From a virus (taxonomy: Duplodnaviria; Heunggongvirae; Uroviricota; Caudoviricetes), in the IMG/VR virus record IMGVR_UViG_2531839532_000012, positions 1 through 32,455 of that record: a stretch of 32,455 nucleotides of DNA. One strand, given 5' to 3'. The position numbers and the translations under genes are program-made. The notes under the pieces are model-generated. The model ran no database searches, was not told the origin of the DNA, and worked only from the letters and a program-made list of their open reading frames with translations. Within the stretch, counting starts at the first letter, position 1, and each line of letters starts with the position of its first letter. This document shows, in pieces, positions 1 to 32,455 of the stretch.

Positions 1-84
1 ATGGCGGGTTATTTGTCCTGGTTATTCCCCCGTTGTAAAATCTCTCCTAAACTTAACGGTACGGCACCACACTTCGGGGATGAA

Positions 85-276
85 ATGTTCGCGCTGGTAC
101 TTTTTGTTTGCTACCTGGATGGCGGTTGTGAAGATATTGTTGTGGATGTCTACAACACGGAACAGCAGTGTCTTTATTCTATGAGCGATCAACGGATCCG
201 CCAGGGCGGTTGTTTTCCGATTGAGGATTTTATAGATGGTTTCTGGCGACCTGCACAGGAGTACGGTGATTTTTAA
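85..276 (+). CDS. yebW: Small conserved host protein (YebW-like, 63 aa); chromosomal flank
   Basis: ATG at 85 with GGGGA upstream, stop TAA 274-276. Translation MFALVLFVCYLDGG...AQEYGDF matches YebW from memory. Convergent with pphA. Confidence 0.55.
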   Translation: MFALVLFVCYLDGGCEDIVVDVYNTEQQCLYSMSDQRIRQGGCFPIEDFIDGFWRPAQEYGDF

Positions 277-933
277 TTATTGCAATTGCACAAGAGTCAG
301 TTCGCCCCCAAAGACAGCACCGGTATCAATATAATGCAGGTTGCCAATATCCACGCGATGTCGCAACGGTGTATGACCAAACCAGAAATGATCAGCCCCT
401 GTAATTCCCTGCCCTTTTTGGCGTTCACCTAATCGCGAGCGGCTCCACAAGACCTGATGCAAATCAACGTCCTTTTGCCATTCATAAACATCATCTGGAT
501 AATCGGCATGAGCAATAACATGCTTGCTGGTGCGACTGTGTACTTCAAGAATAAAGGGCAAATGCTGACATTTTTCCAGCGCCGTTTTCGCTTGTTTCTG
601 TTGATTATCTGCCAGCGCAATAAACCAGTCGCCGCCATTCATCAACCACAAAGACATCTGCTGGGATGCCAGCGCATCCATCGCCATCTGTTCATGATTG
701 CCTCTTACCGCACAAACCCAATGTTGTTCCAGTAACTGCAGACAACGTAAACTTTGCGGCCCACGATCGATAACGTCTCCCACTGAGATAAGTAAATCTC
801 GCCACGGATCAAAACGACAATGCCATAATTTGCGGCGCAACTGCTCAAGACAACCGTGTATATCGCCAGAAAGCCAGATATGTCGCCATTGATGACCCGC
901 AATTCTCTGATAAACGGGCGCAGGCTGTTTCAT
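277..933 (-). CDS. pphA: Serine/threonine protein phosphatase 1 (PrpA/PphA), 218 aa
   Basis: ORF MKQPAPVYQRIAGHQW...GDIHGC...GNHE carries metallophosphatase motifs. Second ATG (933) chosen, preceded by GGGAGG. Host gene of normal GC content. Confidence 0.85.
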   Translation of the reverse strand: MKQPAPVYQRIAGHQWRHIWLSGDIHGCLEQLRRKLWHCRFDPWRDLLISVGDVIDRGPQSLRCLQLLEQHWVCAVRGNHEQMAMDALASQQMSLWLMNGGDWFIALADNQQKQAKTALEKCQHLPFILEVHSRTSKHVIAHADYPDDVYEWQKDVDLHQVLWSRSRLGERQKGQGITGADHFWFGHTPLRHRVDIGNLHYIDTGAVFGGELTLVQLQ

Positions 934-1066
934 CAATATTTTCCTCCCGCGCTAAAGATCACATAATCTTAACAAGAATGTTAAAAAACGCTGGACTCAG
1001 ACAGTAGAGTGTGTGTTATGGTTGACTATAAAGTCAGCGAAGGAAATGCTTCTGGCTTTTAACAGA

Positions 1067-1094
1067 TAAAAAGAGACCGAACACGATTCCTGTT
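1067..1094 (-). ncRNA. sdsR: 3'-terminal fragment of sRNA SdsR (RyeB): loop, 3' stem and U-tail only; body replaced by prophage DNA
   Basis: Plus strand aaaaagagaccgaacacgattcctg is the reverse complement of the recalled SdsR 3' end (CAGGAAUCGUAUUCGGUCUCUUUUU) with one mismatch. Similarity is lost immediately beyond it. Confidence 0.4.
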
Positions 1095-1397
1095 TTCGCC
1101 AACAAATAACAAAATCTTTTAGAATTAATGTGTTAAATAAATTCATGCTCATCTTTTAATCCCTAACACATACCATTACATATTAATACATTCAATTAGT
1201 TACCATTTTTTTCGAGTTTTTTAGAGAAATTTTCGGGAATATTTCAGGTCAATCCATGCATACACAAGCAATTCCTGTATTGAATAATTCCGTAGCAATT
1301 ATGTAAAATCATCTCCGGCTGATTTTCATTCAAACTCGCGCTATCGAACGTCCATCAGCCAGCCGTGGCACGTTCTTGCATACGACATGCTACGGTT

Positions 1398-1952
1398 TCA
1401 TTTATCTCCCACCGGAAACCTCTTATACAAAGTCGATATGCCAACATCATAGATGATCGCTACCTTCAGGCGAGGAACTCCTGATGCAATTAATCGTCCG
1501 GCCTGTGCCCATTGTTCTGGTGTAAGTTTGGGACGACGTCCACCAATTCGTCCCTGTGCGCGAGCAGCTTCCAGTCCAGCTTTTGTTCGTTCAACAATCA
1601 GTTCTCGTTCCATTTCAGCCAGGGCCCCCATCACATGAAAGAAAAAACGCCCCATCGGTGTGCTGGTATCAATAGCATCCGTCAGGCTGCGAAAATTAAC
1701 GCCACGTTCGCGCAACTCCTCAACCAGAATGACCAGATGCCGCATACTACGCCCCAGCCGATCCAGCTTCCAGACAACCAGAGTGCCCCCTGCCGATAAT
1801 GTCCTGAGCAGTTTTTTCAGTCCCGGCCTTTCGGACTTTGTACCGCTTATCTTGTCTTCAAAAATCAGCTCGCATCCTGCACAGTTCAACGCATTACGTT
1901 GTAGATCGGTATTCTGGTCATTTGTTGATACGCGTACATAGCCAATAAGCAT
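1398..1952 (-). CDS. pin: Serine-recombinase DNA invertase (Pin/Gin/Hin/Cin family), 184 aa
   Basis: N-terminus MLIGYVRVSTNDQNTDLQRNAL with catalytic Ser, and C-terminal HTH (GRPPKLT...STLYK). ATG 1952 preceded by GGGAG. The track ORF's 12 extra N-terminal codons were rejected. Confidence 0.9.
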   Translation of the reverse strand: MLIGYVRVSTNDQNTDLQRNALNCAGCELIFEDKISGTKSERPGLKKLLRTLSAGGTLVVWKLDRLGRSMRHLVILVEELRERGVNFRSLTDAIDTSTPMGRFFFHVMGALAEMERELIVERTKAGLEAARAQGRIGGRRPKLTPEQWAQAGRLIASGVPRLKVAIIYDVGISTLYKRFPVGDK

Positions 1953-3032: not shown

Positions 3033-3074
3033 GCCTCTTTTGAATTGCTTTATCTTCATAACAAGAGGTTATTG

Positions 3075-4150
3075 ATGCTTCGCCACTTAACAGGACTCAG
3101 ATTTATAGCTGCATTAATGGTTTATTTATGCCATTTAAATACAGACTATTTTGGTGTTTTTGTAAAAGAAATGTTTTCCCAGGGATTTATTGGCGTTTCC
3201 TTTTTCTTTATTTTATCTGGCTTCATTCTTTCATATTCATATGAAGACAAGCTAAAAAATGAAGTAACAAGTAAAAGACAGTTTATTCTTTTAAGATTGG
3301 CAAGAATTGTTCCAATGCATCTATTATTAGCCATGCCATTTATTTTACTAACCATTCACTTAAAGAACTTTGATTTTTCAAAAACCTTAACAAATATTTT
3401 ATTAATGCAAAGTTGGATACCAAAGGAGGATTACTACTTCTCATTAAATGGTGTATCATGGTCTTTGTCTGATGAGCTGTTTTTTTATTTAATGTTTATT
3501 CCGTTGATTTATACATCAATTACAAAGAAAGTAATCACTGCAATATCAATTATAACTCTACTATTAACTATATATTTTTTAAAAATTATACAAACAGAAG
3601 AACTTAATCACTGGTTATATTATATATTCCCAGTAAGCCGCTTGGTAGAATTTATTTGCGGCATGATTATTTACGCTTGCTGGAAAAACAGCCGACAGCA
3701 GACAGTCGACAGTCGACAGTCGACAGTCGACAGTCGACAGTCGACAGTCGACAGTCGACAGTCGACAGCCTTTTGTTTTTAATTTCACTATTACCTCTGC
3801 TAATAGCTATATATTATAGCAACAACATAAATAATAGTCTACGTTATTCGTTATATTATTTACTCCCCATGGTAATATTCTTTACTTCATGCATCTATCT
3901 AAGAAATGGAGTCATTCATACTATCCTCAGTTCAAAAACCCTAGAGCTATTAGGGAAATCATCATTTATTTTTTATTTAATTCATCAACCCATTATATTA
4001 TTTTGCTTTAAAATCTTTGGACATAACCCCGGACCACTCTATTTAATAGCGCTCCTTGTTATAATAACCATAGTCTCAATCATACTTTATAAATTAGTTG
4101 AGGAGCCTTTAGAGCTGATGCTAAGAAAACGAATTTTAGCAGTAAAATAA
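3075..4150 (+). pseudogene. Acyltransferase-3 family membrane protein (O-acetyltransferase-like), split by frameshift at a heptamer repeat
   Basis: AAGAGG then ATG 3075. N-terminus MLRHLTGLRFIAALMVYLCHL fits acyltransferase_3 proteins and the product is multi-pass hydrophobic. Frame 1 stops at 3782; a second frame continues from the repeat to 4150. Low GC. Confidence 0.7.
3701..3763. repeat. Perfect tandem heptanucleotide repeat (GACAGTC) x9, with degenerate copies at 3694-3700 and 3764-3770
   Basis: Counted directly in the sequence. The unit contains a SalI site (GTCGAC). It sits inside the acyltransferase coding region. Confidence 0.95.
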
Positions 4151-17510: not shown

Positions 17511-17673
17511 AACGATAACTCCGTACATTTGGACATTATCGCCACCGTCAGGTGCTAATCATCGTGGTGGCGAACTGTGCGGGGTTAGCACTACCGGGTA
17601 CGGAACCCGGCGAGCCTTTCGGCTCCCCCACACAGCCCGCCATAAATCGCGAATGTGACTGTGCAAACGATAT

Positions 17674-17697
17674 GAAAAAAAGACGCGGGCGCGTCTC
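17674..17697 (-). terminator. Rho-independent terminator downstream of the late promoter (tR'-like)
   Basis: Minus strand GAGACGCGCCCGCGTCT followed by TTTTTTT, about 90 nt downstream of the Q stop. Confidence 0.55.
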
Positions 17698-17751
17698 ATA
17701 TCGCTCCGTAAACATCCGGGGTGCTAATCCCGACGCCAGATTTTGCTGGCG

Positions 17752-17790
17752 CGTGAGGAATATAGCCCCGGATAACAGATTGAGTCAACA
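17752..17790 (-). promoter_or_regulatory. Candidate late promoter PR' (TTGACT-N18-TATATT) with adjacent hairpin (possible qut/pause region)
   Basis: Hexamers read on the minus strand overlapping the Q stop codon. Followed by hairpin CGCCAG-caaaat-CTGGCG and then the terminator. Confidence 0.45.
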
Positions 17791-19784: not shown

Positions 19785-19940
19785 TTACTCCTCAGATTCG
19801 TAAGCTGTGAAGACAGCAACCTCCGTCTGGCCGGTACGGATTCGTACCTCGCAGAGGTCTTTCCTCGTTACCAGTGCCGTCACTATGACGGTTAAACAGA
19901 TGACGATCAGGGCGATTAACATCGCCTTTTGCTGCTTCAT
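19785..19940 (-). CDS. hok: Hok/Gef-family type I toxin (51 aa)
   Basis: MKQQKAMLIALIVICLTVIVTALVTRKDLCEVRIRTGQTEVAVFTAYESEE, near-identical to recalled HokD/RelF. SD GGAGAAG. Confidence 0.85.
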   Translation of the reverse strand: MKQQKAMLIALIVICLTVIVTALVTRKDLCEVRIRTGQTEVAVFTAYESEE

Positions 19941-19996
19941 AGCCTGCTTCTCCTTGACCTTTCGGTCCGTAAGAGGCTAATCTCTATGTGTCGCAT
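19937..19996 (-). CDS. mok-like leader ORF (19 aa) whose stop overlaps the hok start
   Basis: ATG 19996, stop TGA overlapping hok ATG (ATGA). Analogous to mok coupling in hok/sok loci. Confidence 0.4.
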   Translation of the reverse strand: MRHIEISLLRTERSRRSRL

Positions 19997-20055
19997 AGAT
20001 ATGGCCTCAGATTAATGTTAAGCGTCTTGCAGGACGCGTAATGTTAACTGGGGCT
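19954..20055 (+). ncRNA. sok: Candidate Sok antisense RNA with promoter (TTGACC-N18-TAATCT), antisense to the hok leader
   Basis: Strong promoter hexamers on the plus strand opposite the hok translation-initiation region. RNA ends are inferred. Confidence 0.4.
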
Positions 20056-20150
20056 TTTCTCTATCTGCCGTTGGTGTTCATGCCCGAGGCAGATAGCCTC
20101 AAGCACCCGCAGCAATTCTACTTAACTCCCGTCACCTCGCCAATATGAAA

Positions 20151-26176: not shown

Positions 26177-26731
26177 GTGAATCGGCGCTTTTTTTAGCAT
26201 CACGTTCATTGAGTAGTGACAAAAACTCATTCTCAGCATTCTCGATTTCCGAGAAAAATTCTTGATGAGTTGTTTCTCGCTGCGATCTGATGCTGAAAGC
26301 TAAAGCAAGTAGCCAGGCTTTGTCTTTATTATCCATCGGAATACCTTATTACTGGTTGTGTGAGAACTCCAGTATACCACCGAGCCTGAAGTGGTAAAAA
26401 GACAGGCGCACAACACGAAGGCGCATTTCCGGTATTCATAAAGAGTCGGTCTTGTCTGTTAAATTTAAATGGTGGGAGTGCGCCTCCGGTTGTAAATAAC
26501 GACATTGCTATGTGTAGTCTTTGGCGGCATCAGTTCTACTCCGTGGCTGCCCTGTCGCCCCTTTTTAAAGTGAATTTTGTGATGCGGTGAATGCGGCTAA
26601 GCGCACGCGGCACAGTTAAAAGCATCAGTGTTATGGGTGGATTATCCGGCGTTAATTGTTAACTGGTTAACGTCACCTGGAGGCACCAGGCACCGCATCG
26701 ACAAAATTCATTTGTAAAAATGGAGATAATT

Positions 26732-30206: not shown

Positions 30207-31008
30207 GCAACCACCTATCGCAAAAGCCGATCTGCAAAAAACCCAGGGAAACCGTGCACCAGCAGCAGTAAAAAATAACGACGTGATCAGCTTTATTAAT
30301 CAGCCATCAATGAAAGAGCAACTGGCAGCAGCTCTCCCACGCCATATGACGGCTGAACGAATGATACGTATCGCCACCACAGAAATTCGTAAGGTTCCGG
30401 CGCTAGGAAACTGTGACACCATGAGTTTTGTCAGTGCGATCGTTCAGTGTTCACAGCTCGGCCTTGAGCCAGGTAGCGCCCTCGGCCACGCATATTTACT
30501 GCCTTTTGGTAATAAAAACGAAAAGAGCGGTAAAAAGAACGTTCAGCTAATCATTGGTTATCGCGGCATGATTGATCTGGCTCGCCGTTCTGGTCAAATC
30601 GCCAGCCTGTCAGCCCGTGTTGTCCGTGAAGGTGACGAGTTTAGTTTTGAATTTGGCCTTGATGAAAAGTTAATACACCGCCCGGGAGAAAACGAAGATG
30701 CACCAGTGACCCACGTCTATGCTGTCGCAAGACTGAAAGACGGAGGGACTCAGTTTGAAGTTATGACGCGCAAACAGATTGAACTGGTGCGCAGCCAGAG
30801 TAAGGCTGGTAATAACGGGCCATGGGTAACTCACTGGGAAGAAATGGCAAAAAAAACGGCTATTCGTCGCCTGTTTAAATACCTGCCTGTCTCAATTGAA
30901 ATCCAGCGTGCAGTATCAATGGATGAAAAGGAACCACTGACAATCGATCCGGCAGACTCCTCTGTATTAACCGGGGAATACAGTGTAATCGATAATTCAG
31001 AAGAATAA
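30199..31008 (+). CDS. recT: Recombinase RecT, ssDNA annealing protein (269 aa)
   Basis: [26 protein letters not shown]... matches recalled RecT. Start overlaps the recE stop. Confidence 0.9.
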
Positions 31009-31064
31009 TTCAGCCTGGCGGTGTAATGCACCGCCAACGTGAGACAGTTTTTATGACAAAAATT

Positions 31065-31259
31065 ATGAGATATGACGATGTTAAACCATGTCCGTTTTGT
31101 GGTTGTCCATCTGTTACGGTGAAAGCAATTTCAGGATATTACCGGGCAAAATGCAACGGATGCGAATCCCGAACTGGCTATGGTGGAAGTGAAAAAGAAG
31201 CACTCGAAAGATGGAATAAACGAACTACTGGAAATAATAATGGAGGTGTTCATGTATAA
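31065..31259 (+). CDS. ralR: RalR/Lar-like restriction-alleviation protein / type I toxin (64 aa)
   Basis: MRYDDVKPCPFCGCPSVTVKAISGYYRAKCNGCESRTGYGG... zinc-finger-like Cys pairs. Matches recalled Rac RalR length and sequence. Confidence 0.55.
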   Translation: MRYDDVKPCPFCGCPSVTVKAISGYYRAKCNGCESRTGYGGSEKEALERWNKRTTGNNNGGVHV

Positions 31260-31440
31260 AATAACTGCCACTATTGAAAAAGAAGGTGGCACTCCTACTA
31301 ACTGGACAAGATATTCAAAATCTAAATTAACGAAATCAGAATGCGAAAAAATGCTCTCAGGGAAAAAAGAAGCAGGCGTGTCCAGAGAGCAGAAAGTAAA
31401 GCTGATAAATTTTAATTGCGAGAAACTTCTGTCCTCGTGA
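31252..31440 (+). CDS. YdaC-like small protein (62 aa)
   Basis: GGAGG 5 nt before an ATG that overlaps the ralR stop. MYKITATIEKEGGTPTNW.... Confidence 0.5.
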   Translation: MYKITATIEKEGGTPTNWTRYSKSKLTKSECEKMLSGKKEAGVSREQKVKLINFNCEKLLSS

Positions 31441-31546
31441 GTTGCATTATATACAAATTAGAACTTCATAGCTGATTATTAAAAATCAACCACACCCGCC
31501 AGTATTCTGTATATTTACTGGCGGTCATATCGTAAGAGGTATGGCA

Positions 31547-31828
31547 ATGAATCTTGTGACACTCAAAACGTGGGGAAAACTCAGATATCCGGATAACCCC
31601 CCATCAATATCAACGCTGAGACGATGGGCAAGGAATGGAAACATTTATCCTGCACCTGAACTACACGGGAGGAGTTACAGGGTGGTTCCGGAAGCTTTCT
31701 ATATCAACCCAAATAAGGTTGATACCGATATAACACACCATCAGCCTAATGGGCGACAAGGGAGAGACAGTCCGTTACTGGAGAAGTTAAAACATGCAGC
31801 GGAAAAAATACGATCCCAATTTGCCTAA
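31547..31828 (+). CDS. xis: Excisionase (Xis-like)
   Basis: MNLVTLKTWGKLRYPDNPPSISTLRRWARNGNIYPAPELHGRSYRV resembles lambda Xis. 3' end overlaps the int start. Confidence 0.55.
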   Translation: MNLVTLKTWGKLRYPDNPPSISTLRRWARNGNIYPAPELHGRSYRVVPEAFYINPNKVDTDITHHQPNGRQGRDSPLLEKLKHAAEKIRSQFA

Positions 31829-32080
31829 AAACTTAACATATCGAAGGAGGGACAAAGCATATTACTGGCGCAACCCTCTGACGAAAGAAGAATTTACACT
31901 AGGTAAAATTTCAAGAAGAGATGCAGTAGCGCAGGCAATTGAAGCAAATCATTATATATACAAAAACTACTCTCCTGCTGCCTTAATTGAAAAACTAAAA
32001 GGGTTCGACTCATTTACTATGGCAGACTGGATTGAACGTTACAAAACGATTCTTATAAGGAGAAAAGTGTCCAGAAATAC
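31794..32080 (+). pseudogene. int: Tyrosine integrase, N-terminal arm-binding domain only; truncated by IS1 after about 95 codons
   Basis: ...NLTYRRRDKAYYWRNPLTKEEFTLGKISRRDAVAQAIEAN aligns with the lambda Int N-terminus. The frame runs into the IS1 terminal repeat at 32081 and stops. Confidence 0.7.
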
Positions 32081-32455
32081 GGTAATGACTCCAACTTATT
32101 GATAGTGTTTTATGTTCAGATAATGCCCGATGACTTTGTCATGCAGCTCCACCGATTTTGAGAACGACAGCGACTTCCGTCCCAGCCGTGCCAGGTGCTG
32201 CCTCAGATTCAGGTTATGCCGCTCAATTCGCTGCGTATATCGCTTGCTGATTACGTGCAGCTTTCCCTTCAGGCGGGATTCATACAGCGGCCAGCCATCC
32301 GTCATCCATATCACCACGTCAAAGGGTGACAGCAGGCTCATAAGATGCCCCAGCGTCGCCATAGTGCGTTCACCGAATACGTGCGCAACAACCGTCTTCC
32401 GGAGCCTGTCATACGCGTAAAACAGCCAGCGCTGGCGCGATTTAGCCCCGACATA
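32081..32455 (-). mobile_element. IS1 insertion sequence (partial; continues beyond window end)
   Basis: Terminal inverted repeat GGTAATGACTCCAACTTATTGATAGTG at 32081, followed by the InsB coding sequence on the minus strand. Confidence 0.85.
32096..32455 (-). CDS. insB: IS1 transposase InsB (C-terminal part; 5' end outside window)
   Basis: ...[16 protein letters not shown]...[88 protein letters not shown]. Confidence 0.8.

Follow-up and report, generated by a model that had tools for sequence, protein, structure and literature searches.

A probable lambdoid prophage attachment site in the sdsR (ryeB) terminator of Escherichia coli: the junction beside pphA and the fate of sdsR, ryeA and pphA

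The window analyzed here (the whole stretch of viral DNA, 32,455 nt) begins in chromosomal sequence, and the prophage end that lies next to pphA contains a piece of sdsR, the gene of the small RNA SdsR (RyeB). Is this piece all that integration has left of the gene, as was initially supposed, or is it the by-product of an insertion that has kept sdsR elsewhere? We are highly confident that the interval 937-1397 is the int-distal junction (attR by the lambda convention, on the left side in the window) of a lambdoid prophage. The integration itself was very probably of the Campbell type, Int-mediated and site-specific, into the Rho-independent terminator of sdsR. The features on which the argument is built are listed in Table 1.

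The sdsR stub and its chromosomal flank

Positions 1-1093 of the window differ from E. coli K-12 MG1655 by just two bases, at 397 and 528, and this chromosomal flank is collinear with genomes in which the site is unoccupied until a sharp breakpoint at 1093/1098: position 1094 is a T in the window and an A in K-12, positions 1095-1098 (TTCG) agree, and similarity is gone afterwards. The first-pass annotation had already placed the end of the similarity right past 1093 and pin about 300 bp further on, which agrees with what we found, the pin stop codon lying 304 bp beyond 1093. The last 26 nt of the flank (AAAAAGAGACCGAACACGATTCCTGT) are the reverse complement of the 3' end of K-12 sdsR (NC_000913.3, 1923104-1923207, minus strand); the match is exact and unique in the window, with the 3' end of SdsR falling on window position 1068. 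The overlapping gene ryeA of K-12 (1923066-1923337, plus strand) starts at 1923066, which corresponds to window position 1030. The likeness to the sdsR end, as it had been described, thus holds, while the single mismatch reported with it does not: C1082 differs from the Rfam consensus and from the phage-type sequence, and it is also present in K-12, so that the match is exact; the mismatch reflects the version of SdsR used for that comparison.

What remains of the gene at this place does not behave as a terminator in any of our predictions. Indeed, folding of the stub yields -4.9 kcal/mol (z 0.28) and no hairpin, versus -15.8 kcal/mol for the K-12 terminator, and the terminator scan returned no terminator-like site at 1068-1093. 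The Rfam SdsR model (RF00111) gives 20.5 bits at the stub (E 0.36, for a gathering threshold of 38), with only about the 3' 31 nt aligning meaningfully. Judged from its sequence, the stub is a fragment of the sdsR gene that lacks a predicted functional terminator and that the SdsR family model does not recognize as a member.

The remainder of the gene was searched for as well. The 5' part of sdsR has no match in the whole 32-kb window, and no gathering-level Rfam match to SdsR or RyeA occurs anywhere in it; an intact sdsR is, therefore, not in the window, be it by Rfam or by sequence search, which is what had been anticipated for the interval around the junction. A 34-mer covering the whole K-12 terminator likewise has no match in the window at up to three mismatches, which fits a break at 1094. 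The statement that only a stub of sdsR remains is, thus, right for the junction and for the window, and it fails for the genome, as described below. A 51-aa ORF that runs across the junction (997-1152, minus strand) was set aside as a presumed chance ORF.

Table 1. Features of the prophage junction and of the opposite end of the window (window coordinates).
Feature	Position	Strand	Basis or remark
yebW, chromosomal flank	85..276	+	Annotated at the matching position in strain 300709; identical to K-12 here
pphA, serine/threonine phosphatase 1	277..933	-	K-12 and 300709 annotation; Pfam Metallophos, E 1e-15
ryeA -10 hexamer TATGGT	1017..1022	+	Intact, beside pphA; identical to K-12
First 64 nt of RyeA (272 nt in K-12)	1030..1093	+	K-12 annotation mapped to the window
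Displaced sdsR 3' stub: U-tail, 3' half of the terminator stem, loop	1068..1093	-	Exact, unique 26-mer
attP/attB similarity block, 31 bp	1068..1098		Alignment; 3 mismatches between phage and K-12
Crossover segment of the att core, ACGATTCCTGT	1083..1093		Four-way alignment
Phage att arm, int-distal side of attP	1094..1397		84% identical to PP818812.1 45978-46274
pin-type serine DNA invertase, first prophage gene, toward pphA	1398..1952	-	Pfam Resolvase, 1.2e-50, and HTH_7
Excisionase gene, same prophage	31547..31828	+	300709 annotation; Pfam Exc on the called gene in L005
Tyrosine integrase, 5' part, lambda/HK022 family	31794..32081	+	Cut after about 96 codons
IS1 end inserted in int	32082..32455		Window stops inside IS1

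Crossover, attP and the other prophage end

The second junction lies outside the window; its counterpart was found in E. coli strain 300709 (NZ_CP025903.1), which is 99.9% identical to the window over 1-25000 and 31000-32080, with one large difference, a 56-bp change in repeat number; its prophage continues to xis and an intact int of 358 aa, followed by yebY about 390 bp later. A four-way alignment was then built from K-12 attB (...ATAAAAAGAGACCGAACACGATTCCTGTATTCGGTCC...), the attP of the phage genome PP818812.1 (...TTAAAAAAAGACCGAATACGATTCCTGTTTTCGTCAAC...), the window junction, and the int-side junction of 300709. In this alignment, the window junction is made of a bacterial left part and a phage right part, and the 300709 int-side junction of a phage left part and a bacterial right part. 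Because C1082 is of the bacterial type (T in the phage) and T1094 of the phage type (A in the bacterium), the crossover is confined to the 11 positions between them.

In sdsR, this segment takes in the terminator loop together with the first part of the 3' stem half, and lies 15-26 nt away from the 3' end of SdsR and 53-64 nt inside RyeA, whereas the longer block of similarity between attP and attB spans the last 31 nt of sdsR, its limit at 1098 being also where the megablast matches of empty-site genomes end. The earlier suggestion that the att core includes the sdsR terminator is, thus, supported, and the other junction and its direct repeat, which it had been proposed to look for, both exist in 300709: the core, ...GACCGAA(C/T)ACGATTCCTGT, is present at both junctions of that genome, and as a single copy in the window, which ends before the second junction.

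The two arms are contiguous in PP818812.1, where the last base of the int-side arm is 46271 and the first base of the pin-side arm is 46274, and where 45978-46274 directly abuts the int-side arm; this attP adjoins an integrase 98% identical to that of the prophage. The same core (GACCGAATACGATTCCTGT) and the same arrangement of arms are found in Salmonella phage OK490361.1, with an integrase 72.6% identical. The window arm contains the repeats AAATTTTCGGG and AATATTTCAGG at 1227-1248, of a family (AAATTTCGGG) found in both attP arms, and we regard such repeats as candidate arm-type binding sites of Int. As a side remark, PP818812.1 (compared region 43271-47508) is named "Actinobacillus phage vB_Apl-pPE4", with A. 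pleuropneumoniae as its stated host. This statement looks doubtful, or the phage may come from an enterobacterial contaminant, because its integrase is 98% identical to that of an E. coli prophage and its attP copies the end of an enterobacterial sdsR; our literature search found no paper on phage pPE4.

These elements suggest the following course of events. The phage attP carries its own version of the final ~31 nt of sdsR; strand exchange within ACGATTCCTGT would leave the original 26-nt end of sdsR as a dead stub beside pphA, and the body of sdsR, displaced some 32 kb away next to yebY, would be joined to the phage half of the terminator to give a complete gene. At the int-proximal junction of 300709, we indeed found a full-length sdsR about 130 bp past int, the terminal part of which differs from K-12 at two bases; the last ~15-26 nt of this chimeric gene are phage-derived. 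Rfam scores it at 118.1 bits for SdsR over model positions 1-100, and at 179 bits for RyeA, and this copy, which lies outside the window, is above the SdsR gathering score and has both the hairpin and the U-tail. Its terminator has the same folding energy as that of K-12 (-15.8 kcal/mol), with an A-U pair in place of the K-12 G-U pair and a tail of seven U's, and is flagged by the terminator scan. Of the two fates that had been considered for sdsR in the lysogen, chimeric or disrupted, it is then the chimeric one that is seen in 300709. To judge from this sibling genome and from the population data below, the strain from which the window comes presumably carries a chimeric sdsR too. Beyond the IS1, one would expect the remainder of int, AAAAAAAGACCGAATACGATTCCTGTATTCGGTCC, and the sdsR body; the far junction is predicted to consist of the phage arm, AAAAAAAGACCGAATACGATTCCTGT joined to ATTCGGTCCAGGG..., the sdsR body, and then yebY.

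We surveyed 5426 complete E. coli genomes for this arrangement. Window positions 1-1098 are matched in every one of them (5426/5426); the junction is crossed continuously in 224 and the site is uninterrupted (empty) in 5189. A place covering at least 80% of sdsR is kept in all 5426 genomes. The 95-99% identity band for sdsR, which is the one expected for a phage-type end with two mismatches, holds 217 genomes, about the number of lysogens (224), and the lysogen that was checked, MFDS1022581, stands at 98.1%. The site is, thus, occupied in about 4% of complete E. coli genomes, nearly always by this one arm sequence, and in this species there is little sign of a hot spot used by diverse elements. 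The description of the locus as a hot spot for acquired DNA matches the literature, but that literature concerns Salmonella. One genome stands apart: in E. coli FDAARGOS_944 (NZ_CP065613.1, about 423782-424000), the match to the K-12 locus extends only to position 1698 of L001, some 10 nt before the 5' end of sdsR is reached, with a second place elsewhere in the genome, which suggests a different interruption near the start of sdsR, away from the att core.

Two other readings of the stub have to be weighed against this scheme. One is that the 26-nt likeness to sdsR is coincidental, or the phage's own, and has no bearing on the att site; nothing speaks for it except the short length of the match, and we give it practically no credence, as the match is exact and unique and had no counterpart in 100 shuffles, sits at the syntenic place (135 bp from pphA, as in K-12), and prolongs an identity with the chromosome that is unbroken from position 1. 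The K-12 alignment, the four-way att alignment, and the shuffles refute it. The other reading takes the stub at face value: sdsR would be truly lost or disrupted here, for example by an IS1-mediated deletion of the int-proximal junction or by a non-conservative insertion. It would agree with the lack of an sdsR body anywhere in the 32-kb window, with the presence of IS1 in int precisely at the window end, and with the far junction of this strain, which lies beyond the window and was not recovered in our genome and contig searches. We nevertheless consider it very unlikely, since a sibling that is 99.9% identical has a complete chimeric sdsR, since every complete E. coli genome, all the lysogens included, keeps at least 80% of sdsR, and since the junction shows the precise recombinant structure of Int-mediated integration. 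We, thus, retain conservative Int-mediated integration, and annotators should not take the 26-nt stub for an sdsR that has been lost or turned into a pseudogene, since a complete, chimeric copy is kept by lysogens at the opposite end of the prophage.

State of the prophage and consequences for ryeA and pphA

The prophage is lambdoid, with a Rac-like early region (recET/kilR/ralR), a head module, and a pin invertase, annotated pinE in 300709; an acyltransferase insert is also present. Full-length Int of 300709 contains the Pfam domains Arm-DNA-bind_1, Phage_int_M, and Phage_integrase and is 41% identical to HK022 Int, and the window match to its intact gene ends at 32080. The sequence that follows opens with GGTAATGACTCCAACTTATTGATAG..., which we take to be the IS1 terminal repeat, and is highly multicopy in E. 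coli genomes (median of 10 places per genome for 32082-32455); the IS1 end that the first-pass annotation had implied at the window end is, thus, there, inside int. The int::IS1 junction itself is absent from all 5426 complete E. coli genomes by megablast of the window end, and an exact-pattern scan of genome contigs gave 0 matches. Draft contigs that carry the truncated int break at IS1, and an exact look-up of the truncated Int of 102 aa gave, among the matches listed, three contigs that all (3/3) end at IS1.

Comparisons of the whole prophage rest on BLAST tables and annotation. In related prophages of other genomes, the stretch that measures 25 kb here is about 34-36 kb long and is annotated with baseplate and DUF3383 proteins, among others, whereas the annotation of 300709 has no tail or baseplate genes and shows, in the corresponding interval, a tail-fibre fragment, partial integrase and repressor genes, and the acyltransferase. 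Because int is broken by IS1 and because the tail genes of the relatives are not annotated in the sibling, the prophage has, from its gene content, most likely become defective and lost the ability to excise, and the lineage will probably keep the split locus for good.

Several other observations were made along the prophage. At 2471-2885 (L002 22471-22885), the 300709 annotation places a partial integrase gene and a partial LexA-family repressor gene, adjoining the acyltransferase; this piece sits between the tail-fibre fragment and the head genes, and looks like part of another prophage, at the place where relatives annotate tail and baseplate genes. The acyltransferase gene (Acyl_transf_3, about 3075-4150, plus strand) contains 11.6 tandem copies of the heptanucleotide ACAGTCG at 3688-3768, exactly 8 copies (56 bp) more in the window than in 300709. 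It is an intact ORF of 339 aa in 300709, and is split over two frames in the window (ORFs 3045-3782 and 3656-4150). This change in length looks like slipped-strand phase variation of the prophage acyltransferase, which is possibly an O-antigen modifier. Closer to the junction, across the pin stop codon (1364-1403, minus strand), the sequence resembles, below the Rfam threshold, the hairpin that terminates the 3' end of CssrB, an sRNA of the Shigella chromosome (27.6 bits and E 0.0011, for a gathering threshold of 76); pPE4 shows a perfect inverted repeat of 13 bp at the equivalent position, and the invertase gene may end in a conserved hairpin. Finally, regulatory RNAs with gathering-level scores lie at 17563-17765 (-), 19938-20108 (-), 26509-26560 (+), and 31258-31436 (-); the prophage RNAs comprise C4 antisense RNA with its a1/b1 targets, isrK, sok (hokD is annotated nearby in 300709), DicF, and RalA (with ralR), a set that is ordinary for lambdoid or Rac-like prophages.

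The gene that the integration actually splits is ryeA, which had been left out of the earlier account. The ryeA sigma-70 promoter and the first 64 nt remain on the pphA side, and the other ~208 nt would travel with sdsR; the -10 element, intact here, could be recognized because Choi et al. 2019 (PMC6610125) designed primers that change it to CTCGAG in order to mutate the ryeA promoter. RyeA would, thus, be truncated or chimeric at this junction, its transcript entering phage DNA. The same study reports that transcribing ryeA interferes with sdsR in K-12, and that most pphA transcription comes from read-through that starts at the sdsR promoter (PMC6610125). Because of this interference and read-through, SdsR should be relieved in lysogens of convergent ryeA transcription and of most RyeA antisense pairing, and pphA should be deprived of the sdsR promoter, which is its main one. 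One has to keep in mind that all the expression consequences considered here are extrapolated from K-12 and Salmonella work. The expected relief of SdsR matches what is reported for Salmonella lysogens of phage phiW104, in which the 5' part of ryeA is altered, RyeA falls, and RyeB rises (PMC7380047).

Could the junction beside pphA be functional in itself? The intact ryeA promoter might make a chimeric RNA, RyeA', composed of 64 nt of RyeA (26 nt of which are antisense to the SdsR terminator) followed by the phage arm and running antisense into pin, with possible effects on SdsR (in trans) or on pin (in cis). The -10 element and the start site of ryeA are unchanged, the plus strand shows no terminator-like site from 1030 to about 1900, and the 26-nt complementarity to SdsR is kept. 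This complementarity, however, covers just the 3' half of the stem, the loop, and the U-tail of SdsR, all of which are structured. The Rho-independent terminator end is also the usual Hfq-binding part of an sRNA, and it is to this region of SdsR that RyeA' would be complementary. The drop of RyeA and rise of RyeB in the Salmonella lysogens also speak against an effective antagonism in trans (PMC7380047). We, therefore, hold a functional RyeA' to be unlikely; it adds to integration at the sdsR terminator as the main explanation and does not replace it.

Somewhat more credible, if still short of probable in our eyes, is that integration rewires a three-part host circuit (SdsR, RyeA, and pphA) in the ~4% of E. 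coli that carry this prophage family. SdsR would gain a phage-made terminator, with A-U for G-U and an uninterrupted run of U's, and would lose the convergent ryeA promoter together with nearly all of the RyeA antisense, the reported antitoxin. It would then face a weak promoter-like element in the phage arm (TTTGCA-16-TACAAT), while pphA would be severed from the sdsR promoter and placed downstream of pin. This element (L003 11682-11709, plus strand) lies just upstream of the int-proximal core of 300709 and scores 9/12; shuffled sequences give as many promoter-like hits as would be needed to account for those in the phage arm. The element faces sdsR, reading in the same direction as RyeA, and could take over from the lost ryeA promoter in lysogens, which we mention as a weak lead. 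If true, such a rewiring would shift both sigma-S-dependent SdsR regulation and the level of PphA in a heritable way, a shift that the IS1 in int would fix in this strain. Lysogens and non-lysogens that otherwise share a similar background would form a simple natural experiment for the SdsR/RyeA "toxin-antitoxin" and pphA co-transcription models.

Comparison with known integration systems

The sdsR/ryeB gene is an established phage attachment site, and the phenomenon is already known from Salmonella. In Salmonella enterica, the ryeA/ryeB (sraC/sdsR) locus is occupied by phage phiW104 and by older islands (Balbontin et al. 2008, J Bacteriol 190:4075, as summarized in review PMC7380047 and in citing papers); Bobay et al. 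(2013) list ryeB among sRNA targets, and Frohlich et al. are among those treating sdsR/ryeB as a phage attachment site. Island catalogues use "RyeB" as a target name. Our literature searches found no paper on prophages between pphA and yebY in E. coli, nor one describing this E. coli prophage family at the sdsR site. The earlier inference is refined here in that the limits of the crossover are given, attP is demonstrated, a complete chimeric sdsR is located at the opposite prophage end, and ryeA and the sdsR-pphA link are identified as what is really broken; the proposed uncoupling of pphA and the possible phage-borne replacement promoter are, as far as we found, not reported for Salmonella. 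The analysis, thus, fixes the att coordinates precisely and delimits the crossover in a prophage family present in 224 of the 5426 complete E. coli genomes, the integration of which breaks ryeA and the sdsR-to-pphA read-through.

The closest parallel is phiW104, whose site in Salmonella is described as falling in the terminal 23 bp of ryeB and, at the same time, inside ryeA (Balbontin et al. 2008, as summarized in PMC7380047). The crossover at 1083-1093 agrees with this placement. Target gene and position are the same, sdsR is kept, and the 5' part of ryeA is replaced; the differences are the E. coli host and another mosaic (recET/kilR/ralR, pin, and acyltransferase, without tail genes in the annotation of the sibling). 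The likeness to phiW104 drawn here is one of site and outcome.

With lambda and HK022, the prophage shares an Int with arm-binding, central, and catalytic domains, an xis upstream of int, and an attP located between int and the tail-fibre end, with repeats in both arms that fit arm-type sites. It differs from them in that attB lies in an sRNA terminator, not between gal and bio, and in that attP holds a 31-bp copy of the target end, by which the target is rebuilt.

This last trait brings it close to integration at tRNA or tmRNA 3' ends or in icd (e14), where the element also brings a surrogate 3' end, where an intact gene is likewise found next to int and a displaced 3' fragment at the far junction, and where the target includes a hairpin. 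Prophage e14 also carries a pin invertase near its end. Unlike these targets, sdsR encodes an Hfq-dependent regulatory sRNA that is overlapped by an antisense sRNA, so that integration here spares one gene and necessarily splits the other.
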